A stretch of 64,000 bases of DNA from Eledone cirrhosa (lineage: Eukaryota): the NCBI GenBank assembly GCA_964016885.1, contig OZ024740.1, positions 65,224,001 to 65,288,000 of the forward strand. Reading direction: 5' to 3'. Shown here in pieces: positions 1,001 through 45,468 of this stretch (positions are counted from its first letter, which is position 1; every line of letters begins with the position of its first letter). A program made the translations under genes and the position numbers. The notes beneath the pieces were generated by a model. It searched no databases. It saw nothing but the letters and a program-made list of their open reading frames with translations, and was not told the origin of the DNA.

Positions 1001-4000
1001 ATTCCTTGAATCTCAGTCATTGATGTTGGTTAACTGGAAAGTCCGTTGGATTGAATATCAAGCCACTACCTGCAGCCTCAGATATTCAGGACGTATCGGA
1101 GGGTTCTTGCTGTTCCAAGCAAGCATGCCTTTTGAAGCGTTCCAAAAACGTGAAGGGGCCGATTTTCTTTAACCATCCCTGGAAACCTTTGGAGATAGTC
1201 CCCAGTGTGCCTATGACAATCGGGATCACTTTGACTTCATGGCAGTTCCAAATCCTTTTCACCTCCCACTTTAGGTCCTGGTATCGGTTAATTTTCTCCC
1301 TCTCCTTCTCTTGCACTCTCGTGTCGAACGGGCAGGCCACATCCACAATCAGGCACGATCTTTTTTCTTTGTTCACAACCACCAGGTCAGGTCTATTGTG
1401 TTCCAGTTTTTGTCCGTCTGTATCCTAAAATCCCACAGCACCTTCACCTGACTGTTCTCCATCACCGCCTCTGGCCTATGCTCATACCATTTCTCAGAAT
1501 GTGGTAGATTGTTTACTTTGCACAGGTGCCAGTGGATCACCCTGCCCATCACATCGTGTCTCCAGCCCTTATAGTGGGTCTGGGCTAGGTGTTTACACTC
1601 GGACACAATGTGAGCCACAGTCTCCTCTCTCTCTCCACAGATCCTGCACAGTGGGCTAGCCTCCTCCTTGTAGATATGGTGCTTCAACCACTTCGTTTTG
1701 AGGGACTGCTCCTGCGCAGCCATTAGCATTCCTTCTGTAGCCTTTTTGAGGTCTCCTCTTCTCAACCAGTTCCATGTCTGTGGATCTCTAAATTCAGTTT
1801 TCTCAAAGAAGGTACTATGAAGGGATTTTCCCTTAAGGCTGCTCTTCCTCCTTGATGTTATTTCCTCCTTGGACATCCCCTGGCCTACTGTCCCCTCCTT
1901 CAGTACAGTTCTGAGCATTGGCTCCTTACTATAGGTCACGTATTTGTATAGGTTGTTTTTCTCCATCTGAACACAGTCCTCTATGCTGATAAGACCTCTT
2001 CCACCCTCAGATCTCCTTAGGTAGAGTCTATCGACATCACTCCTCTTGTGGAACATGTTGTAGATAGTCAATAGCTTCCTAGTCTTCCTATCCATTTCTT
2101 TTTGTTCAGCAACATTCCATCTCAGAATTCCCGCACTGTACCTAATAATAGACACAGCTCGGGAATTTACTGCGCTTATGGCATTTCTGCTGTTCAGATG
2201 TGACTTCAATACGCTCCTTACTCTCCGAATGTATTCAGTTCTTAACAATTCCTTCATTTTTTTGTTCTTTATGCCATCAGCCTCCAGAAAGCCCAAATAC
2301 TTGTATCCTTCCTCAGAGTCAATTTCCTTTATCATCTCACCTGTTGGTATCTGGATCCCGTTACTTCTGCTCAACCTACCCCTCTTCATCACAATGACTC
2401 CACATTTACCAATACCAAACTGCATACATATATCACTGCTGAAAATACGGACAGTGTCAACAAGCACATCCAACTCCTTCTCACTTTTCCCGAAGAGCTT
2501 AAGATCGTCCATGAAGAGGAGGTGATTGATGGCAAGCTCTCCCCTTCCCAACTTGTATCCTGCTCTCACTTTTCGCAGCATAATGGTCAAGGGCATCAGG
2601 GCAAGGACAAACAACAGAGGGGACAGGCTATCTCCCTGGAAGATACCTCTCTTGATCTTCACGCTTCCCAAGGATACTCCAGTTGATGTCAACTCTGTCT
2701 CCCAGGACCCCATACTCCTGCCCAGCAACTGTCTGATGTTATCTGCCACCCTGAAGATCTCCAGGCTTTTGGTGATCCAGGAATGAGGCACCATGTCAAA
2801 TGCCTTTCTGTAGTCTATCCATCCCATGGCAAGATCAGTGTGTCTCCTCCTGCAATTCCCCATTACCATCTTATCAATAAGCAACTGGTCCTTTGTACCA
2901 CGTGACTTCTTTCGGCATCCTTTCTGTTCGTCCGGTAACAAGTTGTTTGTGTGGAGGTGATGGTAGATTTCCTCAGACACAATGCTCGTCAACAGTTTCC
3001 ACATTACGGGCAGACATGTGATAGGTCTATAGTTGGTAACATCATTACCCTTGATTCGGTCTTTCATTATCAGAACTGTGGTACCTTTTGTCAACCACTC
3101 TGGCACCTCACCCGACACCAAGCAGTCATTGAACATGGCCGTCAGCTTCGGGTGGAGGGATGTTAAATGTTTAATCCAATACCCCTGCACACCATCTGGG
3201 CCTGGTGATTTCCAGTTGGTTAGTTTTTTGGCTTGCCCCTTAAGAGTTTCAACTGTGATACTCAAATCAGTCTGTTGTTGTGCCTGCTCATCGATCTCCC
3301 TCTGTACTGTCTCAATCCACCCTGCCTGGGCATTGTGTCTAACATCCTGCTCCCATATTCCTCTCCAGAATGTTTTAGCTTGTTCCGCCCCAGGGATCAA
3401 GTCGTTGCCTCTTTCTTTCCCCTCAAGCTGTCCAAACAGCATCTTCTGGTTGTTGTCGAACATGCGGTTCTGTTTATACTGACTGACTCTGTTCTCGTAT
3501 CGCCTGATTTTGGCACTCTTTGCTACAATGCGTTGCTTCAATTCCTCTATGATAATATTTAGCTTTTTACTCCTAGTTTTGTATTTTATTTCCAGTCTAT
3601 TTTTAGTGCCTATGTTTTTTAGTGTCCCATTCAGTAGTGACTCAAGCTTTCCTATGTCATTTCTCATTTCCCCGATTTGCCCACTCAGTCACTTCTTCCA
3701 CCACGGCTCTGCTCTTTCTTGTCTGTTGTTTCCTCTCGCTTTTATACCAAGTAGTTTCCTCACCGTATTTGCTGTTGCTTTGAGGATATTGTTGCACTGG
3801 TGAAGGCTCCTCGCCTCAAGGTATGGGATGACTTTGTTTACCTTAGCTGTTGTTTCTTTTAACTTTTTCCTGTCTACAAATCTTAGGTTCATAGGTCTCC
3901 CACTATCATTGTTCAATTCATCTACCACTAAATTTAGGATGTCAACCGAATCTTGTCCTAGCCCGTCAGCATTCATCTCCTCAGTGGCCGTATCTCTGTT

Positions 4001-4653
4001 CCAGGTATTATTTATCTCAGTATTCAGATCATTGTCTGCTTCGGGTGGTTCCTCCGTTCTCAGGACCTCCTCACCTTCATTTCCCACCGGCTCGCTTGTC
4101 TGGCATACTACACCCGCCATCTCCAAGCCATTCTCTCTGCTCAGTTCCTCCAGTTCCAGCTCGCTTATCCACCCATTAGTTCTTATTACCCGAGCCTGCC
4201 CGGCCAATTTTTGTTCATCTAATTTAAATAAACCAATCTCGTTCCAGATGTTATGCATCCGTCTCCTGTAGCCCCTCTCCTTGGGGTTACTTTTCAGGTA
4301 GCATTGCATAACAGTTCTATTCAATTCTTTCGTCCAGTTGGTTCTGGCCCCTTTCCTTCTTCTTCTTCCTCCAACATCAGCAGTATTTGGTTGACAGTCA
4401 GGTTCCTGCTGCTGAGCCAGGGGGCACCTGTTGGGTGAGAGTCTGTCACATGACGTTCTAGTCTCCATTTCACCGTTATTCGAACTGTTTATGTTCGATA
4501 TTTAAACACTCTTATCGAGGATTGGCGAATGTATGTTTACATAGCCATCTGTGGATCCGCCATCCCACTTGGCCCTTGTGTGGCATTATCACCACGCTGT
4601 ATACGAACACACATAAACAAACAAACACACGGGCAGAAAGGGCCCCAAAAATG
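1001..4653 (-). mobile_element. Near full-length R4/Dong-clade non-LTR retrotransposon (RT, CCHC zinc knuckle, restriction-like endonuclease) inserted in (TAA)n
   Basis: ORFs 3689..4468, 1373..3667 and 1086..1382 join into one frame. RT motifs KSPGPDG, NYRPITCL, GIFQGDSLSPLLF, HLLFMDDLK; CRICGEREETVAHIVSEC; RHD and PDLVV..IVDVACP..EKINRY (RLE). (TTA)n tracts on both sides (881-1000, 4655-4707). Confidence 0.92.
1086..4468 (-). pseudogene. Single ORF of the R4/Dong element (~1130 aa), with one stop codon and one frameshift
   Basis: In-frame TGA at 3689-3691 (WWKK*LSG, probably from CGA) and a 1-nt loss in the A-run near 1406-1410 (restoring it gives TDKKLEHNRPDLVVV). Confidence 0.88.
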
Positions 4654-7931: not shown

Positions 7932-8628
<697 letters not shown>

Positions 8629-8784
8629 ATACATGTTATACATTAATATATATGATAAACACAAAATGTGTTTGCATTGTAACAGACAAAGTTAGCTATA
8701 AATGAAATAAACTAATTAAAGTGAATACAATTTGTCTGTCTCGATATAAGTCAATAAAGACAAGCTTATATTGGCAAAAGCCGT

Positions 8785-8934
8785 GATTCCTGGATAAATC
8801 TAAATTTCAAAATCCAAACCCGCTCCGTAGACGAATTTGAACTTCGAAACCTAAATATGTTTCGCAACGATGGTACATGAATTGAAAAATAAAAAGTGAA
8901 ATATCCAAATCTTCTGTGCTTATCAACAGGAATC
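8785..8934 (-). ncRNA. Second copy of the oversized hammerhead (ATC cleavage triplet)
   Basis: Reverse complement of 9517-9666 with a few substitutions. Confidence 0.75.
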
Positions 8935-9516
8935 CAGTAAAATTAGTACATTCCACCATCAAACATTTTGCAGGTCTGACTACACGTGTGTGTAGCCAGC
9001 CAAACTAGCCGTCCCGCATTCCCGGTGCTAGAAATAACAGCCGTTTATACGGGATTAAAGATCAGCTCTACAGTTAAGGAGCAATATACTATATTATATT
9101 TTGAGATTAAACTCTCAGTCGTTTACAATTAATCAGCTGCAAGAAAGAGGCATTTCCGAGCAGTATATCGAGACAGACAAATTGTATTCACTTTAATTAG
9201 TTTATTTCATCGATAGCTAACTTTGTCTGTTACAATGCAAACACGTTTTGTGTTTATCATATATATTAATGTATAACATGTATTTAACTGCTCGGAAATG
9301 CCTCTTTCTTGGAGCTGATTAATTGTAAACGACTGAGAGTTTAATCTCAAAATATAATATAGTATATTGCTCCTTAACTGTAGGGCTGATCTTTAATCCC
9401 GTATAAACGGCTGTTATTTCTAGCACCGGGAATGCGGGACGGCTAGTTTGGCTGGCTACACACACGTGTAGTCAGACCTGCAACATTTTTGATGGTGGAA
9501 TGTACTAATTTTACTG

Positions 9517-9666
9517 GATTCCTGTTGATAAGCACAGAAGATTTAGATATTTCACTTTTTATTTTTCAATTCATGTACCATCGCTGCGAAACATATTTAG
9601 GTTTCGAAGTTCAAATTCATCTACGGAGCGGGTTTGGATTTTGAAATTTAGATTTGTCCAGGAATC
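9517..9666 (+). ncRNA. Oversized type I hammerhead ribozyme, U3:A8 core variant
   Basis: GATTCCTG (9517-24) - TTGATAA - GCA..TGC - GAAA (9588-91) - 65-nt stem III rod with cTACGg loop - GTC (9656-58) - CAGGAATC. Confidence 0.8.
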
Positions 9667-9733
9667 ACGGCTTTTGCCAATATAAGCTTGTCTTTATTGA
9701 CTTATATCGAGACAGACAAATTGTATTCACTTT

Positions 9734-12432
9734 GTTTTTTCATATATGAGTGTTTGAATTTCTTTTTAATTAAAAATAGGGGCTCACCAAGGGTTTTTTA
9801 AATATATGTAATTTGATTGGTTATAAATGAAATTACGGCTGTCACGTGAACAAGTAGATTCAATTTCGCGCCCGTATTTGGGAATTTATTTTGTAGCCTT
9901 TTAGAGAATTTTATGACAAACAAAAGATAATGGTCAAGAGAAATGGGATGGGAGATATGTTCTGGTTCAGTGAATATAGCAGGTTGTTTTTTCATATATG
10001 AGTGAAGTTTGGTTGGTTGATGTAGTCACGTGAATAAGTATATCAGCTTTCGCGTAAGTTTGTTTGAATTTCTTTTTACTTTAAAAAAAGTGGCTCACGA
10101 AGGCTTTTTTTAAAATAAATATAATTTGATTGGTTATAAATGAAATTATGACTATCACGTGAACAACTTCATTAAAATTCGCGCCAATATTTGGGAATTT
10201 ATTTTGTAGCCTTTTAGAGGATTTTATGACAAGCAAAAGATAATGGTCAAGAGAAATGGGATGGGAGAATTGTTCTGGTTCAGTGAATATGGTTGGTTCG
10301 CTGGGGTGTCAGAATTCAGATTTTCTATTGAAATAAAGAAAGTAAAGATATTTATGTTTATCTGTGTGCTTGTGTGTGTGTGTGTCTGTGTGTGTGTATA
10401 GGAAGATGATTCTATTAGTAGAAATGGGGGAGGGAGTTGTGTGTGTGTGTGTGTGTATATGGGTGTTATGTGTGTGTGTGTGTGGGAGTATTTTAAGATG
10501 GAGAGAAGATACATATTTTGTGTGTGTATATGTGTGTAGGAAAGTGATTCTATTAGTAGAAATGGGGGAGGAAGTTGTGTGTGTGTGGGGTGTTATGTGT
10601 GTGTATGGGTGTTATGTGCGTGTGGTTGTATGGTTAGTATGTTAAGATGAAGAGAATATATATATTGTGTGTGTGTAGGATAATGATTCCGTTAGTAGGA
10701 ATATTTTTGAATGAGCATATTTTACTTACGTAATCGTATTTGTTCTGTTGTATATATATCTCTCTATATATAAAACGATAGATGTCTGTCTGTGTGTGTG
10801 TATGATCTTTATGCATTTCCACATTTCTCTACCGACTTTGATGAAGTTTTGTCCAATGTGCTTCAAATTTACCAGGGCCGGTCAACACGTTATTAATTTT
10901 GCCAAAACTTTCCTGCTTCTATGAGAAAAAATCGATAAAACTAAATACATGCTGTAACCCTTTCTCTTACACGCTTCATTCCTCTCACTACTACCATCAA
11001 CATATATGAAACTACATACATGATGCAACTGTCTTTAAAAGGTTCATCTTTTCCTCTACTCCACTCTCAATCTCCTCTTCAACTCTCTTTAAAAGGTTCA
11101 TCAATCACTCTACTCTCCCCTCAATCTCCTCTGCAACTCTCTTTAAAATGTTATTGCCTCGGTCTACTACCCTTTACTATTTAGAAAAACCAGAAAACTT
11201 CCTTCGAAGGAATGCGACACAAACTTTGAAACCTAAGCAACAAATCGTCATAACGACATTCATACATCAAATATCAAAATTTGAAAAGCCGATAACACAT
11301 AGTAAATACATACTGCTCTCTCAACGTTACATTTTACATCAAATAACAAATATTCAAAAGCAACAGATGCATTTATAAAACAACAAACGTAACAATAACG
11401 ACGCTTAAGCATTTATTTACATGATTCTCAACAAAGACATTATATTTTATTGTTGTCCTTTTTGTAATTTTCTTTCTTTATTTTTCTCAATATGAGACAA
11501 AAAATTGAGAACATTTTGTTCACGGGATTCTATTCAAAGTCGGGACAATTATTGCTTTTGGTCAGGAGAAGGTCATGAAGCAAAAAAATGTTAAATCAAT
11601 CAACAATAAGGGCAAAAATCGATCACGATCATTCCCCCTCTCTATAATTTAACTGCTTTACTCTCTCTGTCGCTCTTCACTCCCTATATGACAACACTGC
11701 AGAGAGAGAAACAATGTATATGATCAAATGGAGCGTTCCGTATATTCCCCCTCTCTATAATTTAACTGTTTTACACTATCTGTAGCTCTTCACTCACTAT
11801 ATGACAACACATACGGCTTATCTGGGGCACTTTTAATCGGCTTATTGCAAATAACAACCCGCAAAATAACACTTCATATAACAGATTAATTCTATATACA
11901 CATGAATCGGAATGTAAGCCGTGAACTTTTTCCTGGGCAAAGTTATTCGAACAGGCATGACCTCATTGCCAGAGTGTTCAGACTGAAACTAGCTAATCTC
12001 CCATGGCCAACTTTATCTTGCCTGTACCCCTGTTCCCGCGTAGGGAGCTGGAATGGACATTTTGCTTACACTTCTCAAGGGATGACATGCAATATCGTCT
12101 ACAAAGAGGTGCTATAGATGTTGGCGCAGGTGTTGGAGGTGTTGGAGCTATGCCGTCTGGAAAACTGGTACGGTCACCCATAGCGGACAGTTCTGACACC
12201 CAGCGGCATCAGGGCCACCATCTTGCAAATTTGGTTTACAAAATTCGCTATTTGAAGATTATTAACCCATCATTGATTGTCCAAAATGCTAATTGGTTCG
12301 TAACTATTAATAACTGGTTTACCTGCTGTATGCACTTAATTGATAAGCTTATGCGCTTTCAAGCTACGTTTACCTGTATGTAACTTTTCATAGCAAATGA
12401 ACAAACCCGAGCAACGCCGGGCTAAACTGCTA

Positions 12433-12952: not shown

Positions 12953-15522
12953 AGTATTTACGTATCGAGAAAGAGAAAAAAAGGGGGGATAGGTGATACA
13001 TATAGTTATTTGCCAAGTAGCGTATGCCAAAGGTGCTCGATACTAGTGCCGGCAGTATTAAATATTCGAAGTGTTAATATTTAGTGGGCTAGAGAGTTAG
13101 CAGAGCGGAAGCACGTGGGAAAGTAAAAAATCGGAGAATAGACCGTTAAAACATGTTTATTTAAAATATCACCTACGTACGTTTCACCCAGTTGGGCTTC
13201 TCAAGGGCATACATAATCACAAGTGTTCCTTATATTGCTCGGAAAGAGTTTTTGGGGTTAGATCCACATCAAGGTACATTGCTCGCAAAAATATCTTGTT
13301 TTGATTTTGCAGCAGGTCAAGGGAGGTAACTCTGGCCGGTGTTAGGGCAGTCTTTCCCGGACAAATTTTTTTTTTTTTTTTTTGCCGCATCCGTTTGTCT
13401 GAGGCTGGGTCTGGTATGCAAGGATTGTTACCTGGGTGTTATTTTGTAGCGCCTGCCCGCCGGGGTGTTAAGACTTGTTGCAGGGAGATCCAGTGTACTA
13501 TTTCACTCTTCATCCTTAACCCATCTGAAGAAGGATATTTTTAAGCGATGTGTACAACTTATCGCTGTTTCAGCTCTGCTGTTGATGAGCTCGTGGGGTG
13601 CAGTTATGATGTGGTAGAGCTCCATGAGGCAAAGATCGCATTTCCTCTTGAAGTTGTACGGTGCAGCCCTGCCGACAATCTCCCAGTGCGTGGAGAAACT
13701 GATGTTTAAGTCCTTTAGTGATGTGATGTAGTCCGCGAGCGAAGTGGAGTGCCTTAGTTTTCTATTTGTGAAAGAGTGGAGATGTGTTCGAACCTAATTT
13801 TGAACGGGCCGGAGGTGGCCCCTATATAATGTTTAACGCTATTGTGGCTAGTAATAGTGCATCTATATATAACCCTATCAGTCAAGCACTATCCTCTAAG
13901 GGGGCAGCGTCCTCTGTCGCGGCAGTTGCAATTTCTGTCGCGGTTCCGTCTATTTCCCACGGTAAGGCTATCATTGTTGCTACCTACGTTGTTACCTACG
14001 CTACCGCAGCTGTCGTTAGCACAATTACGTGGTGCGATTGTTATTCCGCACGTCATGTTCTGCATGTTCCCCAGTCATTTCGCGGTCATTCTGGTTGCGT
14101 CTGCGGATGTCGTTGCCAACACTATTGGATGCTGCCAGGGAGTTGTTAAGGCCGATATAGTTATTGTCAGGTGTAGGTACGTCTGTGTCGAGGTGCTGTG
14201 TCTTGGTGATCTTACTGTGGTTCGTTGTTCCTATGATGTCTGCTAGGTTAGGAGTAGTAGAGAAGGATATTTTTATATTGTTCCTATTAAGAATTTTTCT
14301 ATACCTATGGTTGGGCGGGAAGTTTTTCTCTAAGGCTTCGAAGAACATCCGGGGTATGTTGGAGCCCACACTCCGAGAGTAGGGGGGGGACCATAGGACG
14401 TTACGGTGGCGATTACGTGTCTTTGTACTTTTGCTACGGGTGGTTCCATCTAAGTGACCGCTCTTATGTGTGTTAATGCGCAGTCGCCCGTTCGGTGCCC
14501 CTTTCACTTTATGCTCGGGTGCACTCTTTCTACCTCTTCCATGTTTATGTACACGAAGATGATGGTTGGAAGGCGTTGGTAGTAGGCCGTCGCCTTTGTT
14601 GGTTTTGTAATAGGGGAATAGTTTGAGTAATCTACAGTGTTCACCGTCGCCGGGGACGTCATCTTTGGTGCGGTTATCTATTATATCCGACTTCAACGAG
14701 GTCGCTGCGTGATCGGTTATAGGTATGGCTTACTATAACGTTAGTTTTATGAGCGGTGTGGTTTCTAGAGCTAGCGTTAGGGATGTAGGAAATTCCTCGG
14801 TTAAAGCCGGCGCTTATCAGGACCCTATTATAGTAATCATCCGCTTGGTTGAAGATATCCTCATTGGCGGATAGCCTCGAGATTCTATGTGAGATACTAT
14901 AGACTATGGAGTTGAGAGTCTGCTTAGGGTGGTTGGAGGCATAATCAATATAAGAGAAGCACTCTCCAGGCTTATGGTATGGCTTGTATAAGCCCGTACT
15001 CAACTCCAGAGTCACATCCAGGAAGTTGACAACCCTGTGGTTGAGGTCCATAGTTACGGATAGGCCGTATGACTTAAAGAACCTGTGTATATGTTTGTTA
15101 AGGTTCTCTATCCTACGGGGGCTATGGTTCCTAACGGTAAACAGGGCGTCGTCCCTATATACACCTCCTTGTAGGGCCGGTATTTCTTCCCTAAGCTTAT
15201 GTAGGAGGTATATCCCGACCAGGTCAGTTGCTTGCGCTGAGTCACTGGACCCCATCGTGACATCGAAGTTATCAGGACGGTTGGTTCTGATCCAGTGGGG
15301 GCCTTCGAACTGGATAATGGTTCTACGTTCCGCTAGAATTATATCTATTTCTTTTTTAGTGAGGCTAGTGTTAGATCTAGCTAAGATAAGTGCCTTATTT
15401 AAGAGTATGGGGGAGATAGAGGCGTAGTAGGTATCTATATCAAACTGGGCGAAACGTACGTAGGTGATATTTTAAATAAACATGTTTTAACGGTCTATTC
15501 TCCGATTTTTTACTTTCCCACG
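12953..15522 (-). mobile_element. 5'-truncated Naiad-type Penelope-like retroelement with an inverted terminal piece
   Basis: FDVTMGSSDSAQATDLVG, GGVYRDD, NFLDV, LWSPPYS, CNCR..CPL..C, VIY..HYIG (GIY-YIG). 15443-15522 is the inverted copy of 13114-13193; (TA)n on both sides. Confidence 0.9.
13167..13211 (-). ncRNA. Minimal type I hammerhead (U3:A8) in the PLE 3' region
   Basis: Minus strand: tatgccc TTGAGAA gccc-aact-gggt GAAA cgtacg TA ggtgata, then AATAAA. Palindromic stem III; stem I imperfect. Confidence 0.7.
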
Positions 15523-16131
15523 AATATATATATATATACACACATACATATACACACACATACATACACACACACACATATATATATATACATGAAAGTA
15601 GATCAGTCGCTTACTGAGGAAGGTTCCAATATTCGCATTCCATGCTATAGCAGAGTGTATATATTATGCAAAACCTATATATTTATGTATATATATATTA
15701 TGATCAAAACTTTCGGAAACGAATTAATACAACAAACATATCTGAAGAATTTTCGATTACAGAGTCAGGTTCGATGTATAATAAATCTTGCCTCGAGGTG
15801 ATCGATAGAGAAACATATGTAATATGATATTGCATATGGTACGATGCAACACTGAATCCACATTCTTCCTCATTATAATATATATATATATCCAGGGAGT
15901 GTAACTTGGAGTTACTGTAGATTCATTCATTACCACTGTAAAGGGTCTGACGAGGCGTCCATTGCAGAATCGGGATAGATCAATACAGATCAAACCCAGA
16001 CCTGATCCGTGGTGAACCGCGCATCACCACCAACCAATAAACGTAATGAAGGAGGAACCAATCGTCCTTGTTATTTTATTTAACTATATATATAAATATA
16101 TATACATTCCGATTGTGTTATTATTTCTGTT

Positions 16132-18769
<2,638 letters not shown>

Positions 18770-18774
<5 letters not shown>

Positions 18775-19671
18775 AGTGATGAAACACAGATACCAACACA
18801 TCTGTATATATATTGCAAAAGAAAAATTTAGCCAGATTGAAGTATACTAATTATTATACTACAGTTTGTCCATATCGATTTAAAATAATAAATCAACGGA
18901 GACGAACTGTATTGGCAAAAGGCCGTGACGTTTAGACACATTTAAATTTCAAAATCAAACCTGTTCCGTAGATAAGTTTAGACTTTAAGATCCAAATATG
19001 TTTCGAGTTAAATAAGTGTAGGAATATCATGTCCCGCTCTCCTCAGTAAACATCCAGAGACAAATTGATATGCTTCACTTCTAAATGATTTAAAAGACTG
19101 CGTGACGCACATGGCTTTACAGTATCTAACTAGTCTCATAACCGTACTGCTAGAAATAGCAGTCGTATATATGAGGCGGTTTGCAGCTCAAACTAGGAGC
19201 AGTTAAAATTAATAAGGTAATGAATTCTTTTACAATGGAATCAGCTCGAATGAGGAAAAATATCCCCTGAGCAGTGTATAAATTAATATGTAAGTGATGA
19301 AACACAGATACCAACACATCTGTATATATACTGCAAAAGAAAAATTTAGCCAGATTGAAGTATACTAATTATTATACTACAGTTTGTCCATATCGATTTA
19401 AAATAATAAATCAACGGAGACGAACTGTATTGGCAAAAGGCCGTGATGTTTAGACACATTTAAATTTCAAAATCAAACCTGTGCCGTAGATAAGTGACAA
19501 ACTGTAGTATAATAATTAGTATACTTCAATCTGGATAAATTTTTCTTTTGCAATATATATACAGATGTGTTGGTATCTGTGTTTCATCACTTACATATTA
19601 ATTTATACACTGCTCAGGGGATATTTTTCCTCATTCGAGCTGATTCCATTGTAAAATAATTCATTACCTTA

Positions 19672-19677
<6 letters not shown>
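18770..19677 (-). mobile_element. Retrozyme-like element, locus 2: 518-bp unit x1.4 plus a 182-bp inverted segment
   Basis: atgtaagtgatgaaacacag at 18770 and 19288. 19496-19677 is the reverse complement of ~19208-19388. (TA)n on both sides. Confidence 0.88.
18927..19054 (-). ncRNA. Oversized type I hammerhead ribozyme, canonical core
   Basis: Minus strand: GATGTTTA CTGAGGA GAG..CTC GAAA catatttgga..cTACGg..tttaaatgt GTC TAAACGTC (TAAACATC in the second copy). Confidence 0.85.
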
Positions 19678-19729
<52 letters not shown>

Positions 19730-20753: not shown

Positions 20754-20788
<35 letters not shown>

Positions 20789-22439
20789 GAACCAGTAAGA
20801 CCCCGACGGCTGAGCTCAAGCCGTTTCGAAGGCTAATTCTGGACTAAATGAAAATTTATCCTGGTATTTAAATAGCCGATCTTCTCAAGGGGTAATTCCA
20901 TATATGGTCAAAGTGATTGTCAAAAGTCAGTAGTAATTCTGTGATTGCAAATTAGTAGGGGAGATGGTGGCTAAACCTGCCAGTAGGAGAAAGAGGGGAG
21001 GGGGTGGAGTAGACCCAATTAAGCGTTGGTAGTGCCAGCTAGAGCTGGGCATGAGGTCAAAGAAGATACTGGGGAGGGGGACGGGGGGGAAGTCGGAACG
21101 GTAGGTAGAACAATGAGGGTAAAAATATATATGAAAGAAAAAATACTGAGAGTGAAGAAAAGCGAATAAGTGTAAAGAAAAAAGTAAAGCAAGTTCTACG
21201 ACCTAAGTCTCTAGCTATTGTTAGGCTAGATAAATAAATAAAGAAAGAAATAAAGAAATAACGAAATAAGTAAATGAACTAGGTGGGACGGAATAGGCAA
21301 GGACCCTTTTAAGAGGTATAAGTACGTAAATCATACGGTGACAGGTCAACAAATGGGGCCAAAATACTAAGGAGACTACCACGAAATAAATAATAAAGGT
21401 TTCAATCCCGGGCACAAGGCCAGCAACCACCCAGTGCAGCAAAGTAAACTAGTACGAGATAATAATTATGAGTCCCGAAAAAAATATATACTAATGCTAA
21501 CTCTAAAAGATCTTAAACAAGCTACATGAAAGTTCGTACGAAGTAAAGGTAGAATACGGAAAAATAAATTCAGAATCCCCCCCCCTCCCCCCCAAAAAAA
21601 AGAAAAGCGAAGAAAGAAATACTGAAACGAGAAAATAAGGCATAGTGCCACTAAGAAATATAGAAAGCACGGAAAATAGTGGGAGCGTCGGAAAAAGGGG
21701 GCAAGTATCCGGGGTCTAAACCAACTACTATAAAAAGCGGAGTCCGCCAAATCTATCATAGACTAGGGGAGGGGGTGGGGGTACTAAGGCTACAAGGGGC
21801 CAAAGGGCAGCCTCGAGTGGGCGAGAAAAGACGCCGACAAAGAAGAAGAGCTGGGGTAGAAGGACTAAGGAGGGATGGGGGGAAGGAAATAAAGGAAGCG
21901 ATAAAAGAATAAAAAGAAGATCTTACATCTCCCTTGGCAAGCAGGAGTTACCCATTGCAAAATCGGCAAGTGGGTGTTATAGCCCTAGTCTACCCCCCCC
22001 CCCCCCGGGTCATTATGGGGTTTGAGGGCGCTTGATTGGGTCTACTCCACCCCCTCCCCTCTTTCTCCTACTGGCAGGTTTAGCCACCATCTCCCCTACT
22101 AATTTGCAATCACAGAATTACTACTGACTTTTGACAATCACTTTGAACATATATGGAATTACCCCTTGAGAAGATCGGCTATTTAAATACCAGGATACAT
22201 TTTCATTTAGTCCAGAATTAGCCGTCGAAACGGCATGAGCTCAGCCGTCGGGCTCTTACTGGTTCCTATTACACACTCTACTACCCCAAGTATTGAGTAC
22301 TTTGGTGCGTTATGGTCCACCTGGTTCCTTACCACATTTCCTTCGTTATCTAGCTCCTACTCCCGTAGTAGAGCACTTTCCGACCCTACCACGCCGTATC
22401 CAGACTTTTCCGCTAAGCTCAATTCATTTCACCCGCACC

Positions 22440-24599
22440 ATGCGAAAACACAACATTGACTTCTCTACCAAGAACATCCCAATCCCACCGAAAAAACTTT
22501 ACCTTCGGATGCTCACGCAAAAAATCGATCTATTTGCGAAAATACTTAGATGGAGAACTTTTTTCTATGACAGATATTGCGACAACCAGGACTTCGGCAC
22601 CAAGGAGAGATTCGGATTTATTACCTACAAATCTCCGCCCCGAACCCCTTGCTCTCACCCTTCGAGAATGACCTCTTCCAACTGGTCAAGAACATTAAAT
22701 TTAAACCCAGACACAACCGATTCCTACAAAAACTCCGTAGCAACTTAACAAAGTATGATAACACCAATGACATCATGGTGCATTCGGATAAAACTGGGAA
22801 CCTATACTTTGTCAACCCTGACAGATACCACACACTGATCAGGAGCAGTCTAAACTCCACCTATAAAAAGGCCAACCACTCTTGCATCGAGGACCTAAAT
22901 CGAGATGGACAACAAATTACCTCCAGCCTCGGGGTCGCCGACCGCACGGAACCTCTAGACCCACGGACACCATACTTCACACTGAAGGACCATCAATCCG
23001 ATTTTGACCGTAAACCCTCTATCAGGCTTATTAACCCAACGAAGTCCGACATAGGGAGAATCAGCAAAAAAATCCTAGACCGCGTGATACCAAAAGTCAA
23101 GCAACACGCCCGACTTAGCCTATGGATCAACACCCAGGAAGTAATCTCATGGTTCAGCAATATGGAGGATAAACGAGACACTAAATTCATACAGTTCGAC
23201 ATAGAGAGTTACTATACTTCAATCACCTTACCGCTACTTACTGCCGCCTTGGACTTCGCTGAAACACTTGTGCCCATCACCGACCAGGAAAGAAAAATCA
23301 TCCTCCACGCCAGGAAGACAGTCTTACTCTTTGACAACTCTAAATGGATAAAACGAGCTCCCGACTCACCCTTCGACGTCAGCATGGGCGCCACGGATTC
23401 GGCGGAGGTCACAGATCTTATAGGATTATTCCTAATAGCCAAACTCACCGATATGTTTCCTGCATTCGGTGGTGGATTGTACCGTGATGATGGGCTCCTT
23501 ACCCTTAAAGGGTACAACTCCAGTAGTACAGATCGGGTCCGGAAACAATTAATCAGCTTCTTCCGCGACTGGGGATTTAAAATAACCCTACAAACGTCCG
23601 TGACCCGACTAAACTTCCTGGACGTGACCCTCGACCTCGAAAACGACCTGTGCTACCCATACAGGAAACCTAATGACAACCTGCACTACATCCACCGCCG
23701 ATCAAACCATCCTAGGAACATCACAAACAACCTGGTCAAAAACATCTCCCTCCGCATATCCCGTTTGTCAGCTAATGAGCGGATATTCGATGAACATGCG
23801 CCTTATTACAACCAGGCCCTCAAGCGGAGTGGTTTCCGGGAGGAAATATCCTACTGTCTAGCTCCCATTAGCGGAACCAGCAGGAGACACCGCCGCTCAC
23901 ACAATGTAACATGGTTCAATCCTCCCCACAACGCAGAGGTGACAAATCCCATCGGGAAACTATTCTTTAGGCTCATTGAAAAACACTTCCCACTACAACA
24001 CCGCTACCACAACATAATTAACAAAAATACCATCAAACTCTCTTACAGCACTACACCTAACTTCGAACAAAACATCGTCTCCTCTAACAACAAAAAACTC
24101 AACCCCGATGGCAGAAATAACCTAAATAGCAGTGGAGAACCGACCAGGAGGTGTAACTGTCCGGATAGATCCATTTGCCCACTCAACAATAGATGCAGAG
24201 ACCGTAATGTGATCTACCAGTGCAACGTGAGGACGGATACCTCCAACAAAGCCTATATAGGACTTACCGCATGTGACTTCAAGACCCGGCTATACCAACA
24301 TAGACATACCTTCCGAAACCCGGCCTCGGCGTCACGCCACTACACTTTCGGGCTACATATGGGACCCCAAGGACAACAACATCACCTATGATCTCACTTG
24401 GAGATTACTGTCCAGAGCCAATTCTTACAGGGGAGGACGCCGTCCGTGCAATTTATGCTCGGAGGAAACTTTACAAATGCTGTTTTCGACGGACCAACTC
24501 CTAAACAAGAAAGATGAACTGGTTACTGCATGTAAACATATATTGCGTAGGACTTACCTCGCCCTCAAACCCCATAATGACCCGGGGGGGGGGGGGTAG
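22440..24599 (+). pseudogene. Naiad PLE RT + GIY-YIG polyprotein (~720 aa) with two frameshifts
   Basis: N-terminus FSTKNIPIPPKKLY..LRWRTFF; SDKTGNLY, TLKDH, IRLINPTKSDIG, QFDIESYY, MGATDSAEV, GLYRDD; CNC..CPL..C; VIY..AYIG; CNLC..E; CKH. Frameshifts near 22640 (C-run) and 24330. Confidence 0.92.
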
Positions 24600-25683
24600 A
24601 CTAGGGCTATAACACCCACTTGCCGATTTTGCAATGGGTAACCCCTGCTTGCCAAGGGAGACGTAAGATCTTCTTTTTATTCTTTTATCGCTTCCTTTAT
24701 TTCCTTCCCCCCATCCCTCCTTAGCCCTTCTACCCCAGCTCTTCATCTTTGTGGGCGTCTTTTCTCGCCCACCCGAGCTGCCCTTTGACCCCTTGTAGAC
24801 TTAGTACTCCCACCCGTCCCTGAGTCTATGATAGATTTGGCGGTCTCCGCTTTTTATAGTAGTTGGTTTAGACCCCGGATACTTGCCCCCTTTTTCCGAC
24901 CGCTCCCACTATTTTCCGTGCCTTCTATATTTCTTAGTGGCACTATGCCTTATTTTCTCGTTTCAGTATTTCTTTCTTCGCTTTTCTTTTGGGCGGGGTG
25001 GATTCTGAATTTATTTTTCCGTATTCTACCTTTACTTCGTACGAACTTTCATGTAGCTTGTTTAAGATCTTTTAGAGTTAGCATTAGTATATATTTTTTT
25101 CGGGACTCATAATTATTATCTCGTACTATTTACTTTGCTGCACTGGGTGGTTGCTGGCCTTGTGCCCGGGATAGAAACCTTTATTATTTATTTCGTGGTT
25201 GTCTCCTTAGTATTTTGGCCCCATTTGTTGACCTGTCACCGTATGATTTACGTACTTATACCTCTTAAAAGGGTCCTTGCCTATTCCGTCCCACCTAGTT
25301 CATTTACTTATTTCGTTATTTCTTTATTTCTTTCTTTATTTATTTATCTAGCCTAACAATAGCTAGAGACTTAGGTCGTAGAACTTGCTTTACTTTTTTC
25401 TTTACACTTATTCGCTTTTCTTCACTCTCAGTATTTTTTCTTTCATATATATTTGTACCCCTCATTGTTCTACCTACCGTTCCGACTTCCTCCCCCTCCC
25501 CCTCCCCAGTATCTTCTTTGACCTCATGCCCAGCTGTAGCTGGCACTACCTACGCTTGATTGGGTCTACTCCACCCCTCCCCTCTTTCTCCTACTGGCAG
25601 GTTCAGCCACCATCTCCCCTACTAATTTGCAATCACAGAATTACTACTGACTTTTGACAATCACTTTGACCATATATGGAATT

Positions 25684-25777
25684 ACCCCTTGAGAAGATCG
25701 GCTATTTAAATACCAGGATAAATTTTCATTTAGTCCAGAATTAGCCGTCGAAACGGCTTGAGCTCAGCCGTCGGGGT
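25684..25777 (+). ncRNA. Type I hammerhead ribozyme (U3:A8) with full stem III in the family A pLTR
   Basis: ACCCC TTGAGAA ga(t)cggcta..tagccgtc GAAA cggct-tgagctc-agccg TC GGGGT; predicted cleavage after 25772. Other copies at 22161-22254 (+) and 20800-20893 (-). Confidence 0.88.
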
Positions 25778-25884
25778 CTTACTGGTTCCTATTACCCACT
25801 CTACTACCCCAAGTATTGAGTACTTTGGTGCGTTATGGTCCACCTGGTTCCTTACCACATTTCCTTCGTTATATATATATACAT

Positions 25885-27690: not shown

Positions 27691-27695
<5 letters not shown>

Positions 27696-27890
27696 AAAAA
27701 GTTCAAGACCCCGACGGCAGACCTCAAGCCGTTTCGACGGGTATTTCTGGACATCCAGAAATAGCAGTCAAAACGGCTTGAGCTCTGTCGTCGGGGTCTT
27801 GAACTTATTCCAATTACCCACTCTACTACCCACAGTTTTGAGTACTCTGGTGCGTTATGGTCCATATGGTTCCTTACCACACTTCCTTCG

Positions 27891-27892
<2 letters not shown>
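27691..27892 (+). mobile_element. Solo family A tail with fold-back
   Basis: Diverged match to 25735-25870, with an inverted arm centred on tttctgga-ca-tccagaaa (~27751). Confidence 0.85.
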
Positions 27893-27981
<89 letters not shown>

Positions 27982-27986
<5 letters not shown>

Positions 27987-30985
27987 TAAAATAACAGATT
28001 AAAGTTTAAGCAAAGAATCGATGCTTTCACCCTTAACGGGATCTTCTGAAACTAACAAAGTCAATCTGTAAACGCAGAACTGGATATTTCAAAAACGTTG
28101 CACCCGGAGGAAGACAGGAAGACGATACTTTGGTTCGTGGAAACGTTCGCTGGCAAAGAACGGAAAAAAAAAGAATAATAGGTCATTAATAGGAGCGGTG
28201 AAGGACGGTGGATTGGCAGTATCGGTAGAGGGTCGGACGCCATGCTTTCCAGCATAGTTACGTCCCTTTACGATCTGAGTTCAAATCCCGCCGAGGTTGA
28301 CTTTGCCTTGCATCCTTACGTGGTCGATAAAATAAAGTACCAGTAATGCACTGGGTAATTGCTGGCCTTGTGCCTAAACTAGAAACAATTAATAGGAGCA
28401 GTGAATAACAATTACGCGCAAAGACAGAACCACGTTTATGGTATACAAGAGGTCGTTCACTAATGTTCTCTTAGGTGGTGCATAGAGACGTTCTCTGGCA
28501 ATGAACGAAAAAACGAAGATAATAAGTCATATGTGGAGCGTGGAGAACAATAGCACGCAAAGACAAAACCACGTAAATGGTATAGCAGAAGTCGTAGACT
28601 AAAATTCTAACTAGGAGACCAAATGAATCTCCGCTACAGGGTTAAAAACAAAGTAAATAAATACAATACAGAAGTAATAGAAATAAATAAATACATAGAC
28701 GCAAACAAATACGTACATACACAAGCATACGCAAAACCTTACCATAGGTATACAAAACCACGCACATATAAATATGTGTGTGTGTGTATGCTTGTGTACA
28801 AATAAATAAATAATTATATAAACGTATATAAGTAAATAAGTACGTATATAACAAGCGCACACACATACCTACAAATAAATACACGAATGTTCGGAGACGT
28901 AAGTCAACTAAAACAAGAAGTACACATATACACACACCCACCATACGTACGAACCTGCATACTGACGCAGACGCAAAACTCCCGTATACACATAGCCAAA
29001 CCCTAAATACCATATATATATATAAAAATTATACGCCATAACAATCAAATATACGTACTAGAAGGTATACATAACATCACAAAACATACGGGTAATATAT
29101 ACTTACCTATGCGAATAAGTAAAGGAATAAACAAAACATATACTTAGCTCCCACATCAAGACGTAAAATATCCACGTATAGTTCGTACTATCCGTTAGGG
29201 TATAACGTGGAGCTGTAATACAGGAAAGTTTTGTTCAATTTATGTTTACAAGCCGAAATTGCCTCAGATCTTTTGTTTAAGATGTTGTCTGTGGCGTAGA
29301 GTATGTCCAGGGCCTCAGCGGCGCAGAGGTCACATGGTCTTTTATTTCCGTTATACGATCTAGCCCTAGCTAGGATCTCCCAGTGTAACTTATATTGGGT
29401 GTGGTTGTCTTTTAGACTCCAGATATAAGCTGAAAGTGACGTCATATTCCTTCTTAGAGGGTAACGAAAAGAATGGGTATGCATGTAAAGACGCTGCTTG
29501 AAACTATTGGCGGTTAACCCTATGTAGGCCCTACGGACGTGGGTGTTACAACCTTATATTTGTAGACAATGTTACTAGAGAGGCATTTCCCGGATAGGGG
29601 GCAATCAGCCCGATTCTTAAAATTACAGTTAGTACTAACTACAGGGTTGCACGTGTTCCTACGGCTAGGTAGTTTAGCTAAATTTGAAGCTGTGATATTA
29701 TGTGCAAGGTTAGGAGTCGTAGAGTAAGAATTTTTAATAGTATTTCTATTAAAAATTTTACTATATTTATGTGTACGAGGAAAATGCTTCGTATTAAGGG
29801 AAAGAAAGACCTTAGCTAATGGTGGGGCCACCTCCATATTATATGGTGGGTTAAACCAACAAATGCGACGGGATCTATTTCTTCTAGGTCTATTTTCGTA
29901 CTCTGTATATGCTACCTTATCGACAAATCCACTTCGAGCATTAGCTTCATTGTAATAAGTGGAATGGTCGTTGAAAATGCGTTCGTTGGTGGAAAGACGG
30001 GAAAGCCTCAACGAAACGTTTCTTACCAGGTTCTTGGTTATGCTGGCAGGATGGTTGGAATGCTTACTTATGTAATTAAGCGTATCATTCGTCTTTCTAT
30101 ACGGGTAATACAACCCATTCAATAAATTGAGTGTAACTTCGAGGTAATTAACGACCGAGAGATTGGCCTCAACCTGTATAGAGAGGTTGAAGCCTTTAAA
30201 GAAGGCTGTGAGTTCTTTTCTGAACCTGTCGCAAGCACGAGGTCCGCACTTAGTCATGGTCAAAAGACCATCGTCACGGTAAAAACCACCGCCTGCGTTG
30301 GTGAATTCGTCCTTGATAGAGAAAAGAAGGAAAATGCTAATAAGATCAGTAACGTCCGCAGAGTCACCGGCGCCCATACTCACGTCGAATGGGGTACTAT
30401 TGGATTTTTTAATCCAAATAGAGTCGTCGAAATTAATCACCGACTTTCGGGCATTAAGGATGACATCAACTTCGAAATCCTTAACCGCTGTGAGTGTTTT
30501 AGCGAAATTGATAGCTCTAAGGAGAAGTGGTAAAGTGATGGAGGAGTAGTAATTGTTGATGTCGAATTGGATAAAACGGCAATGTTCCTTGTTACATATG
30601 CCGTTGAACCAATCAATCACCGCGAAAGAATTATTCCACAGTGCAAGAGGGGCCAAAGTTCTAATTTCAGGTATAATTCTATCAAGAATCGTTTTACTAA
30701 GTCTACCTAAATCGGACTTCGTAGGGTTAATAAGCCGAATAGAGGGGTTGTTCGGAAAATTGGATTTGTGATCCTTCAGAGTAAAGTGGGGAGAAATAGG
30801 GTCCAGAGGTTCGGTCCGGTCCAGGATGTTACGATCAGATGTGATTTTAAACCCAGCATCGTTGATTTCATTGATGACGCACCGATTAGTTTTACGGTAA
30901 TCCTTAGTTACAGCATTATGTAGTAGTTGATGGTAAATACTGCGCTCCACTTGATATAGGTTGCCAGTTTTGTCGGAATGGACGT
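27982..30985 (-). mobile_element. 5'-truncated Naiad-type PLE (family B) with a nested SINE
   Basis: ORF 29520..31025 (HSDKTGNLY, TLKDHK, QFDINNYY, MGAGDSA, GFYRDD) and GIY-YIG tail 29188..29484; 3' UTR closely matches 16330-17460. Confidence 0.92.
28203..28387 (+). mobile_element. tRNA-derived SINE (~185 bp) with an 18-bp TSD
   Basis: A box TGGCAGTATCGG, B box GAGTTCAAATCC, central gactttgcctt(g)catccttacg..gtcgataaaataaagtaccag. TSD attaataggagc(g/a)gtgaa at 28185-28202 and 28388-28405. Confidence 0.93.
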
Positions 30986-31689
30986 GCATGCGTGTAGCCA
31001 GCATATGTACGAGACACAAATACACACACTCTCACACACATATATGTAAGTGTACATCCACACGTACATAGACACACACGCACACACTCCCCCCCTTTTC
31101 ATATAAATCGGGAAACTAATAAGTCTTTTATCACAGTTTTTTCGTTTCCTTGAACTATATCTGTTAGACACGCAGTGACTAACTAACAAGAAGAATGTTT
31201 TAAATCTGCGTGTCTGATCTGACTGACATACATGCGTAGCTTGGGAATAAAACAAATCAAGGGGTATCGCTGGCCGTGGTGATCCCCCCCCCCCAAGCAT
31301 ATTTTGTAATGTATCGTCTTATTGGCTAATTTCATCGTCATATTGGCTATTCAACCAACGAGAGTAATTGTTGCTCAAAAGCATCTGCCACTTTGTTTCC
31401 ACGTTTATTTATCGTTTCGCTTTCGAATCTTCCTCCAGTATTTCGTCGTTTATCATCAAAATATTTTTCTCGTTTTGGTAAGTTATATTGTTAATTTATA
31501 TATGATTTTTTAAATTTATATTAACTATTAGAAGTCTGAAAATATTTTTATACATCTTACAATAATATTTATATGATCATTTGTAAAATAACAATTATAT
31601 AATCTAATTACATTACAACGATAATTTAGTATTAATTTATATCATGTTTAACTAGAGTTATTACAAGCGTTTCCTTAAAAACATATTAA

Positions 31690-32207: not shown

Positions 32208-32211
<4 letters not shown>

Positions 32212-33578
32212 GTTTAGTAGTCAGTTACAAATATTAAGCTCTAAGAAAATACTTCTGAGCATTACATTATAATTTAAAAAATAATAAAAAAAAATATATG
32301 ATCAACACTACTGTGTTTTTTTTGCAAAATGACAATCATTTTTTAACCAGATAGAAATACCTTAATTCAAGTACATATAGTCCGTCTGTATCGATCTAGA
32401 GAATATTAAATATTAAATCTATACTTACAGACGTAAAATGGCAACTGCCTGGTGCCTAGACAAGTTTAAATTTCAAAATTCAAACCTTTTCAGCAGATCG
32501 GGCAGAACTTCCAAACGTAAACCTGTTTCACAAGGGATGTTATACTAATGAAATCATTAATTAATTACGGAAAAACTATTTATAAAATAATTATTAGTAA
32601 AGTAATCAATTTTCTGTGATCTTCGGTAGGCACCCAGAAATTAAAATCACTTCTCCTAAGATAATATCTTAAGACTGATCTGTCGCAAGCCTAATACATG
32701 TGCTTTTGCACACGACCTTCTCAGCATTCTGGCTCATATCCATGGCGCTAGAAATAGCAGCCATGAATATGTGATTATGAATTCAGCTCACAGTAGGAGC
32801 AGATTAATTTCAGTTTAGTAGTCAGTTACAAATATTAAGCTCTAAGAAAATACTTCTGAGCATTACATTATAATTTAAAAAATAATTAAAAAAAATATAT
32901 GATCAACACTACTGTGTTTTTTTTGCAAAATGACAATCATTTTTTAGCCAGATAGAAATACCTTAATTCAAGTACATATAGTCCGTCTGTATCGATCTAG
33001 AGAACATTAAATATTAAATCTATACTTACAGACGTAAAATGGCAACTGCCTGGTGCCTAGACAAGTTTAAATTTCAAAATTCAAACCTTTTCAGCAGATC
33101 GGGCGGAACTTCAAAACGTAAACCTGTTTCACAAGGGATGTTATACTAATGAAATAATTAATTAATTACGGAACAACTATTTATAAAATAATTATTAGTA
33201 AAGTAATCAATTTTCTGTGATCTTCGGTAGGCACCCAGAAATTAAAATCACTTCTCCTAAGATAATATCTTAAGACTGATCTGTCGCAAGCCTAATACAT
33301 GTGCTTTTGCACATGACCTTCTCAGCATTCTGGCTCATATCCATGGCGCTAGAAATAGCAGCCGTGAATATGTGATTATGAATTCAGCTCACCGTAGGAG
33401 CAGATTAATTTCAGTTTAGTAGTCAGTTACAAATATTAAGCTCTAAGAAAATACTTCTGAGCATTACATTATAATTTAAAAAATAATAAAAAAAAATATA
33501 TAATCAACACTACTGTGTTTTTTTTGCAAAATGACAATCATTTTTTAGCCAGATAGAAATACCTTAATTCAAGTACAT
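32208..33578 (-). mobile_element. Retrozyme-like element, locus 3: 601-bp unit x2.3
   Basis: ttcagtttagtagtcagttac at 32208, 32809 and 33410; copies nearly identical; shares motifs and helices with loci 1 and 2. Confidence 0.88.
32451..32634 (-). ncRNA. Oversized type I hammerhead, CCGAAGA (U4C) core; second copy at 33052-33235
   Basis: Minus strand: GGTGCCTA CCGAAGA tcacag..cttgt GAAA caggttta..taaactt GTC TAGGCACC. Base of stem II is weak. Confidence 0.7.
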
Positions 33579-44765: not shown

Positions 44766-44796
<31 letters not shown>

Positions 44797-45158: not shown

Positions 45159-45306
45159 AACCAAATAAATATATATTTAAAAAAAAAAATAAGACTTCAG
45201 TTGCATTTTCTATTTCATCTCTTTTTCTTTATACTTTCACTGGTGTAGGACACCTCGGTTATTTTTCATTTTGTAAAAAAAACCTCACTTTCTAATATAT
45301 ATATAT

Positions 45307-45468
45307 AAGGAAAGAAGTGTGGTAAGGAACCAGGTGGACTATAACGCACCCGAGTACTCGATACTTTTGGGGTAGTAGAGTGGCTAATAGGAAAAGAGTC
45401 AGGACTCCGACGGCTAGAAATAGCCGTGGAAACGGCTTGACCTCTGCAGTCGGGGTATTGCCTCATTT

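Follow-up and report, generated by a model that had tools for sequence, protein, structure and literature searches.

A predicted type I hammerhead ribozyme lies on the plus strand at 9517-9666 of the window, by which we mean the whole 64,000-nt stretch of Eledone cirrhosa DNA analysed here. A descriptor scan resolves it into an 8-bp stem I (9517-9524 with 9659-9666), the core UUGAUAA (9525-9531, a U3-A8 variant), a stem II region (9532-9587), GAAA (9588-9591), stem III (9591-9657) and the GUC cleavage site (9656-9658). Stem III is a long rod with 27 of 28 positions paired, 8 of them as G-U, around an 11-nt apex (9619-9629) that contains cUACGg at 9621-9626. The window holds five full copies of the rod and one partial copy: a forward and an inverted copy at locus 1 (L1f, L1r), one at locus 2 (L2) and two at locus 3 (L3a, L3b), which represent only three independent subfamilies. 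A previous sequence-only reading had listed three loci with 64-65 nt between GAAA and the cleavage site, and we find 65, 64 and 65 nt at 9592-9656, 18937-19000 and 32461-32525. These coordinates were right but came without their strand (plus for the first, minus for the other two), and two full copies on the minus strand (8785-8934 and 33052-33235) and the partial one (about 19445-19495, also minus) had been missed. Counted from A15.1 to U16.1 inclusive, stem III measures 67, 66 and 67 nt at loci 1, 2 and 3.

In register, the three loci form 27, 26 and 24 of 28 rod pairs, with 8, 6 and 6 G-U pairs, and the longest Watson-Crick run is 4-5 bp; the G-U-rich rod of about 28-30 bp that had been described at locus 1 is thus borne out. 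As RNA, the rods fold at -25.6, -20.6 and -21.2 kcal/mol (z = -7.8, -5.5 and -4.1, equalled by 0 of 200 shuffles), whereas the antisense strands give z = +0.6, -0.6 and -0.3 and the DNA is nearly unstructured (just -1.2 to -4.8 kcal/mol). The structure is therefore confined to the ribozyme strand, in agreement with the earlier claim of strand specificity. Neither rod arm has a second pairing partner elsewhere in the unit that beats shuffled arms. By sequence match and predicted fold, the apex of loci 1 and 2 is a UNCG tetraloop closed by C-G, a kind of loop that is extra-stable; at locus 3 the corresponding letters are cUGCUg (c-TGCT-g). The tetraloop had been thought to cap the rod, but in the predicted fold a 1x2 internal loop separates the rod from the 2-bp stem that carries the tetraloop.

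All of this lies within a motif that agrees with the type I hammerhead core (C3-U4-G5-A6-N7-G8-A9 ... G12-A13-A14, with A15.1-U16.1 and an NUH site). Locus 2 has the canonical core CUGAGGA, locus 1 the U3-A8 exchange, which the available text of PMC3088659 and PMC4209133 gives as a known natural covariation, and locus 3 has CCGAAGA, with U4C in both copies, described in the former source as a natural variant of much lower activity in vitro. The cleavage triplet is GUC in four of the five copies; in L1r, G16.2 is changed and the C15.2-G16.2 pair is broken. Altogether three of the five copies carry core or basal-pair defects. In the five-copy alignment, five of the eight core-proximal stem I pairs and two of the three basal stem II pairs are altered on both sides. 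The covariation score of the whole motif is reached by 0 of 500 shuffles, and slid registers fall from 91% to 17-56% paired. The stem II region varies as reported previously (56, 35 and 90 nt at loci 1, 2 and 3), and the alignment has no evident shared loop motif for a loop I-loop II contact. The three basal stem II pairs that had been counted are present at loci 1 and 2, while at locus 3, where stem II is weak, both copies have a U-U followed by two pairs. The constrained active fold lies above the minimum-energy fold by 1.8 (L1f), 3.4 (L2), 6.0 (L1r) and 6.9-8.0 (L3) kcal/mol, and the in silico probability of stem I in the locus 2 circle is 0.05. Rfam models detect no hammerhead family up to E 1 across the window, or up to E 10 on loci 1 and 2, presumably because the long insertions in stems II and III defeat the models. 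The rod thus sits in type I hammerheads with stem I covariation, which we regard as predicted ribozymes.

The hammerheads are carried by non-coding units. At locus 1 the unit spans 9169-9733 (+) as a partial tandem with a period of 539 nt, preceded by an inverted near-monomer at 8643-9163 (-; hammerhead 8785-8934) that ends at a (TA)n-like tract. Within the forward unit, a first GCUC...GAGC hairpin (9289-9317, +) begins 5 nt after the position of the inverted copy's (TA)n junction; it is followed by a second, GCUC...G(A/G)GC hairpin (9368-9388, +) that is common to the three subfamilies, and then by a conserved hairpin (9397-9439, +) with an invariant UAUUUCUAGC apex, in which 3 of 15 predicted pairs show two-sided change. 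The locus 2 unit (18772-19495, -) comprises 1.4 tandem units with a period of 518 nt and a (TA)n end; its hammerhead lies at 18927-19054 and its rod at 18936-19001, and its upstream copy is cut off inside the rod at 19495. Next comes an inverted truncated copy (19496-19680, +), whose (TA)n junction, the second at this locus, falls about 86 nt further on in the unit. At locus 3 (32209-33578, -), 2.3 tandem units with a period of 601 nt and a (TA)n end contain hammerheads at 32451-32634 and 33052-33235, with rods at 32460-32526 and 33061-33127.

The units have a GC content of 0.31-0.35, a longest ATG-initiated open reading frame (ORF) of 36-50 aa and periods of 539, 518 and 601 nt, and the subfamilies are about 60% identical outside the rod (60-62%). 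Their arrangement is one of partial tandems and inverted truncated copies, two complete tandem hammerheads occurring at locus 3 only. The family is dispersed, with three loci in 64 kb, and multi-copy: 306-371 contigs per sequencing run match the locus 1 unit in many variant rows, from which no copy number can be read. All four (TA)n junctions examined fall 5-12 nt before a GCUC...GAGC hairpin, which in unit order precedes the hairpin with the conserved apex, and in the three full 3' ends the junction is 150-250 nt from the cut site. The GCUC...GAGC hairpin is duplicated in subfamilies 1 (9289-9317 and 9368-9388) and 2 (19242-19273 and 19184-19201), and at locus 2 one (TA)n junction precedes each copy. 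These paired junctions recall the double start of reverse transcription from which the 'tail' of Penelope-like elements arises, and the unit anatomy fits the internal initiation of reverse transcription described for a Penelope-like element in the available text of PMC11167929. Since the genomic copies continue past the cut site and cover about 1 to 2.3 units, the template would have been a circle or an uncut multimer. In silico folding of the unit circles gives stable structures (z -3.4 to -5.7; the locus 1 value comes from a 544-nt stretch, and its stem I result is unchanged with 539 nt). The units share no exact match to Pol III box A/B. We also considered a SECIS element, for which no AUGA/GA quartet is seen by eye, and an Sm-site-like AUUUUG in the 3' arm, which is paired and at chance level in AU-rich sequence; both were rejected.

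From these features the carriers are probably retrozyme-like non-autonomous derivatives of Penelope-like elements, with a parent in the Hydra clade. They lack an ORF with reverse transcriptase (RT) and GIY-YIG domains, and such ORFs occur elsewhere in the window. The Hydra parentage is suggested by the (TA)n ends, the layout and the ends of stem III, as no sequence link was found: the units show no similarity to Hydra terminal repeats outside their own family, by blastn in the window or by nhmmer on the window and 92 fetched Hydra-RT loci. Insertion at (TA)n fits the Hydra clade but is not specific, since Naiads target (TA)n too. Neither an ORF-bearing partner element nor a precursor with a single palindrome was found in the window or in the 92 loci.

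Several other elements share the window, among them ORFs with the Hydra-clade motifs RW(K/R), DKT and CxCx5C, as given in the available text of PMC8557442. A near full-length Hydra-type element occupies 22029-25870 (+), with an inverted copy at 20788-22030, terminal repeats flanking an ORF that starts at 22440 and contains a frameshift, and a (TA)n end. Its hammerhead (25684-25777) combines a U3-A8 core with a stem II region of 54 nt; stem III is nearly palindromic (19 nt, self-dimer -30.7 kcal/mol) and longer than in any of the 66 surveyed Hydra loci. Short back-to-back fragments of this family lie at 7988-8177, 27691-27897, 45302-45460 and 60222-60390. Every one breaks off within the hammerhead, at a 7-nt repeat common to the 3' strands of stems II and III, which suggests a hot spot of template switching. 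A second Hydra-type element (40167-44769, ORF 41236-42936) has a canonical core at 44668 (+) with an 8-nt palindromic stem III, an inverted copy at 40268 (-) and a short palindromic relative at 60900-61230. A third lies at 27980-31031 (-), with related copies at 16328-18744; near its 3' end, at about 27995-28055, inspection by eye alone suggests a hammerhead-like fold in which position 4 is altered (CAGAAGA / CAGUAGA) and stem III is 17 nt long. A fourth Hydra-type ORF, frameshifted (14025-15471), lies within 13113-15522 (-), together with an 80-nt inverted terminal piece. Two hammerhead-like motifs (15742-15821 and 34404-34448, both +) with 8-nt palindromic stems III and long stem II regions (61 and 26 nt) sit in short pieces ending at (TA)n. 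A LINE-type reverse transcriptase at 1373-4501 (-; Pfam RVT_1, E 3e-23; interrupted by a stop at about 3689) is unrelated to the rod. At 46283-46636, a near-perfect inverted repeat matches several miRNA models, each time with a score under the gathering threshold, and is most likely a palindromic repeat insertion.

To assess selection on the rod we compared its pairing with a null in which equal numbers of substitutions are placed at random, using our own simple simulations here as for the other nulls. The 24-27 of 28 pairs kept exceed the null mean of 16-22, with P < 0.02 in 11 of 12 settings and 0.08 in one. This result supports a predicted RNA-strand-specific stem III that is kept by selection. 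The two arms are unequally conserved. No other 28-column window of the element is as well conserved as the 3' arm, in which 22-23 of 28 columns are invariant, compared to a median of 9 and to 12 in the 5' arm, and which shows 3-4 differences per subfamily pair against 9-14; under a pairing-only null this asymmetry has P 0-0.14. Two-sided change is also rarer among rod pairs (4/28) than among stem I pairs (5/8; Fisher P 0.013).

Variation among contigs was assessed in three sequencing runs from a single sample, which may be the source of the window itself, with 40 of 41 substitution rows listed and rare variants dropped by the contigs. Six rows on the locus 1 unit are rod substitutions, five of which keep or add a pair. 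As for A-to-I editing as a source of the G-U pairs, four of these six rows, a small number, are A/G, and C/U changes are equally common between subfamilies. The indel rows all fall at 9380-9495 (11 of 11), and no joint appears among the rows listed; because the indel-free stretch spans the whole of 9496-9737, the absence of indels is not specific to the rod. Loose contig ends inside the motif fall in the stem II loop, among the 18 of 110 rows listed. The contig depth steps at the rod apex from about 7-10k to 19-32k, perhaps because copies are truncated within the rod or because the conserved arm also attracts contigs of other subfamilies, two causes that the summed depth does not discriminate.

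The constant length of the rod had been taken as a sign of function, such as a ruler or a tertiary contact. We find that the rest of the unit accumulates 13-14 indel events per subfamily pair, or 1.6-2.2 per 67 columns. For the 67 columns of the rod, about 2.8 events would be expected on the three branches and one event of 1 nt is seen (Poisson P = 0.23). Other inter-anchor distances are about as constant (30-32 nt, and 108-110 nt in two of the three subfamilies). Length constancy is thus weak evidence, not significant with three subfamilies, and the inferred ruler or contact is not supported. A fixed length needs no ruler, since one origin, a 37-nt tandem duplication that sets the length, and pairing explain it.

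This origin emerges from the internal symmetry of the rod. At locus 1, copy 1 of the duplication (9587-9623, +) holds the functional GAAA, the 5' arm and a decayed site AUC, and has lost its self-pairing; copy 2 (9624-9660, +) holds a decayed GAAA, a self-complementary 30-mer (9628-9657) and the functional GUC. Copy 2 (rod positions 38-67) self-pairs at 15 of 15 positions in L1f, at 14 of 15 in L1r, L3a and L3b and at 12 of 14 in L2, with hairpin z = -4.6 (L1f) and -4.4 (L3b) and self-dimers of -17.8 to -25 kcal/mol. Compared to column-shuffled rods, 13 of 13 copy 2 self-pairs have P = 0.0008-0.002. Copy 1 (rod positions 1-30) self-pairs at 8-12 of 15 positions and forms no significant hairpin. 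The best ungapped period is 37 nt in four of the five copies, and L2, which has a 1-nt deletion, gives 36 as its second best.

Any rod in which one arm is a palindrome is necessarily a direct repeat as well, and the independent test is therefore the 11-nt apex. If the copies arose by tandem duplication, the apex should read as the cleavage triplet followed by two bases of stem I, one of stem II and GAAAC. In fixed register, L2 matches at 9 of 11 positions (P 1e-4) and L1f and L1r at 7 of 11 (P 0.005 and 0.007), while the match at locus 3 is weak (5 of 11, P 0.15) and improves with a 1-nt shift. On this comparison, cUACGg is best read as the seam of the duplication with A13 changed to G. The tetraloop is missing in one of three subfamilies and coincides with this putative seam. 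The difference in self-pairing between copy 2 and copy 1 exceeds a rod-only null (P = 0.001-0.054 over 18 settings). Loss in copy 1 contributes no less to this difference than retention in copy 2 does, and retention alone is not clearly beyond the null (P 0.01-0.47). With a perfect duplicate, transcription of copy 1 would at once yield a hairpin of -7.1 kcal/mol; the hairpin that copy 1 actually offers has -3.6 kcal/mol at locus 2 and 0 to -2.4 kcal/mol at the other two loci. Furthermore, the rod ends of locus 3, ACAGG...CTTGT, equal the two halves of a 10-nt stem III in eight fetched Hydra loci. We conclude with high confidence from these alignments that the rod arose as a 37-nt tandem duplication of a stem III palindrome. 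Searches of an open-access library turned up no natural stem III that is described as having formed in this way, although the supplements of retrozyme papers could hold some.

Based on this origin, we propose that the duplicated palindrome is an intramolecular frozen dimer, which closes the ribozyme within one unit; we hold this with moderate confidence. The ancestor would have been a type I hammerhead whose palindromic stem III had lengthened to about 30 nt. A tandem duplication of 37 nt would then have copied the last stem II base, GAAA, the palindrome, the cleavage base and two stem I bases. With the copies head to tail, copy 1 can pair with copy 2, because each copy is self-complementary, to give a long helix III inside one RNA, so that the helix normally built between two neighbouring palindromic hammerheads would now form within one molecule. 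The rod alone joins the first GAAA, on the stem II side, to the second GUC, on the stem I side, and any cleavage would hence depend on it. The inner GUC and GAAA would have decayed into the apex, giving cUACGg in two subfamilies, and the first-transcribed copy would have lost its own hairpin, otherwise a competitor. Joining GAAA and GUC through copy 1-copy 2 pairing would thus explain the selection on pairing, the loss of the first hairpin and the decay of the inner core. A single unit could then close the catalytic junction, and tandem transcripts could be cut to monomers and circularised, the circles being copied by the reverse transcriptase of a partner element. We place less confidence in cleavage of the monomer by the predicted ribozyme than in the duplication origin. 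Monomer folding also fails to explain why the duplicate was retained, since a single 30-nt palindrome already gives a hairpin of 13-15 bp (-7.1 kcal/mol); protein binding or a switch may account for this retention and for the conservation of copy 2. Such a switch, in which an intramolecular rod alternates with a copy 2 that is self-paired, dimerised (-25 kcal/mol) or protein-bound and so gates cleavage of the circle, seems rather unlikely to us. If it were true, a natural hammerhead would have internalised its dimer partner by tandem duplication and would still use the former dimer surface for control, providing a direct handle on why animal retrozyme circles escape re-cutting.

The conserved 3' arm is also what a protein docking site or ruler would show, with the partner reverse transcriptase or a host dsRNA-binding protein reading that arm and perhaps blocking the ribozyme in the circle. 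In its favour are the conservation of the 3' arm and the scarcity of two-sided change described above, and, according to the available text of PMC7229834, hammerheads of animal circles need a block other than self-pairing. The asymmetry of the arms is, however, also explicable by fast loss of self-pairing in copy 1, and a ruler is at odds with the non-significant length constancy. Moreover, the four (TA)n junctions lie just before a GCUC hairpin, 150-250 nt from the cut site in the three full 3' ends, suggesting that the hairpin and not the rod is the start signal of the reverse transcriptase, and neither the Hydra elements of the window nor the 92 Hydra-RT loci carry a rod. We therefore consider docking unlikely as the primary explanation; it is compatible with the duplication origin, and the case for possible protein binding would rest on the sequence conservation of the 3' arm and not on length.

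The same arm could be a small RNA, in a pre-miRNA-like or siRNA precursor freed at its 3' base by the ribozyme. An imperfect hairpin of about 65 nt with one conserved and one divergent arm does resemble miRNA precursors. Nevertheless, no Rfam miRNA family comes near threshold (best E 3.4 and 9.3), Watson-Crick runs reach only 4-5 bp, and a cut made by established hammerhead chemistry would produce a cyclic phosphate on a 1-nt overhang while the 5' side stays uncut; since the palindromic arm and the seam already explain the anatomy, we regard a small RNA as highly improbable. Hardly better placed is a neutral relic of slippage or fold-back in dead or dying repeats. The tandem and inverted rearrangements found everywhere in these elements and the defects in three of the five copies are what such a relic would leave, but it is disfavoured by the pairs kept at about 60% identity, by the rod substitutions that mostly keep or add a pair and by the covariation of stems I and II. 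The duplicated palindrome, closing one ribozyme within one unit, is the reading that we carry into the comparison with known systems.

For this comparison, the 92 Hydra-RT loci consist of 77 from the best 80 of 573 metagenome stretches and 15 from genome bins, many of them near-duplicates. A hammerhead was detected in 66, the best match always with a stem III of 6-10 nt, so that stem III in the rod units is, as stated earlier, far longer than in Penelope-like hammerheads. A scan allowing stem III up to 160 nt, which recovers four of the five window copies, yielded 34 candidates that are weak and for the most part branched; on inspection by eye we attribute them to chance. A covariance model of the rod scored highly only on its five training copies in the window and gave one chance match (E 0.61) in the 92 loci. 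A degenerate exact pattern of the 3' arm had no match in metagenome contigs, 0 of 267 candidates in viral contigs were Hydra-RT relatives, and three 12-nt family motifs had 0 matches in the available part of the supplement of Craig 2021, where FASTA line breaks can hide matches. The Hydra-type RT loci from genome bins (L078-L092), many with hammerheads, sit in 15 contigs of bacterial bins, which are most likely animal host DNA.

The rod units resemble Hydra-clade hammerheads, as far as the available text and File S2 of Craig et al. 2021 (PMC8557442) describe them, in (TA)n insertion, in tandem and inverted truncated copies, in the stem III ends ACA...UGU and in the U-U at the base of stem II, seen here at locus 3; Hydra-type ORFs also occupy the same window. 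They differ in lacking an ORF and any terminal-repeat similarity, and in the length of stem III: in the part of File S2 available, every Hydra hammerhead has a minimal stem III of at most 10 nt, and the one long loop III (31 nt) belongs to a non-canonical algal Chlamys row. With metazoan non-LTR retrozymes (available text of PMC7229834 and bioRxiv 10.64898/2026.07.22.740005) they share non-coding tandem units with one type I hammerhead each, a low GC content (here 31-35%), stable in silico circles and copies that run through the cut site. The unit size is 518-601 nt here compared to 150-450 (PMC7229834) and 51-972 (bioRxiv 10.64898/2026.07.22.740005) in retrozymes. Their stem III is described as 1-2 bp with a small palindromic loop, against 66-67 nt here, and our stem II region is, unlike theirs, long and AU-rich; the circles here are in silico only.

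Helix III built from two palindromic copies is likewise a property of dimeric hammerheads (newt satellite 2, ASBVd and minimal Penelope-like motifs; PMC4209133, PMC6155905), and action as dimers through a palindromic stem III is established in the available text of PMC6765202 and PMC6155905. There, two whole ribozymes share the helix, whereas here stem III alone is doubled around one core, one stem I and one stem II. The large-helix III type I hammerheads of fungal and protist Penelope-like elements, phages, mammals and chrysoviruses (available text of PMC4209133 and PMC13725137) have in common with the rod units a long stable helix III, an apparently weak or unrecognisable stem I-II contact and predicted monomer activity; our case differs as an animal non-autonomous repeat with about 28 bp formed by a tandem palindrome. 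Cleavage as a monomer is described for at least one large-helix III motif of the fungal Penelope-like elements, and a dimer-mimicking helix III engineered into a single motif led to cleavage (available text of Cervera and de la Pena 2014, PMC4209133), while one of nine predicted dimers of frog retrozymes cleaved in vitro (available text of bioRxiv 10.64898/2026.07.22.740005).

Animal Penelope-type hammerheads are thought to be dimeric through a tiny palindromic stem III, and this dimer dependence is the usual explanation for uncut circles. Shorter palindromes of 8 and 19 nt occur in the same window. Stem III-capped descriptor searches and Rfam miss the present motif, and similar motifs may thus be under-counted. 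What is new is the architecture; the ribozyme and the kind of element that carries it are both known, and no new ribozyme class is involved. The family appears to record a one-step route out of dimer dependence, in which the palindrome was duplicated and the dimer helix became intramolecular, and would be the natural counterpart of the dimer-mimic engineered by Cervera and de la Pena in 2014.
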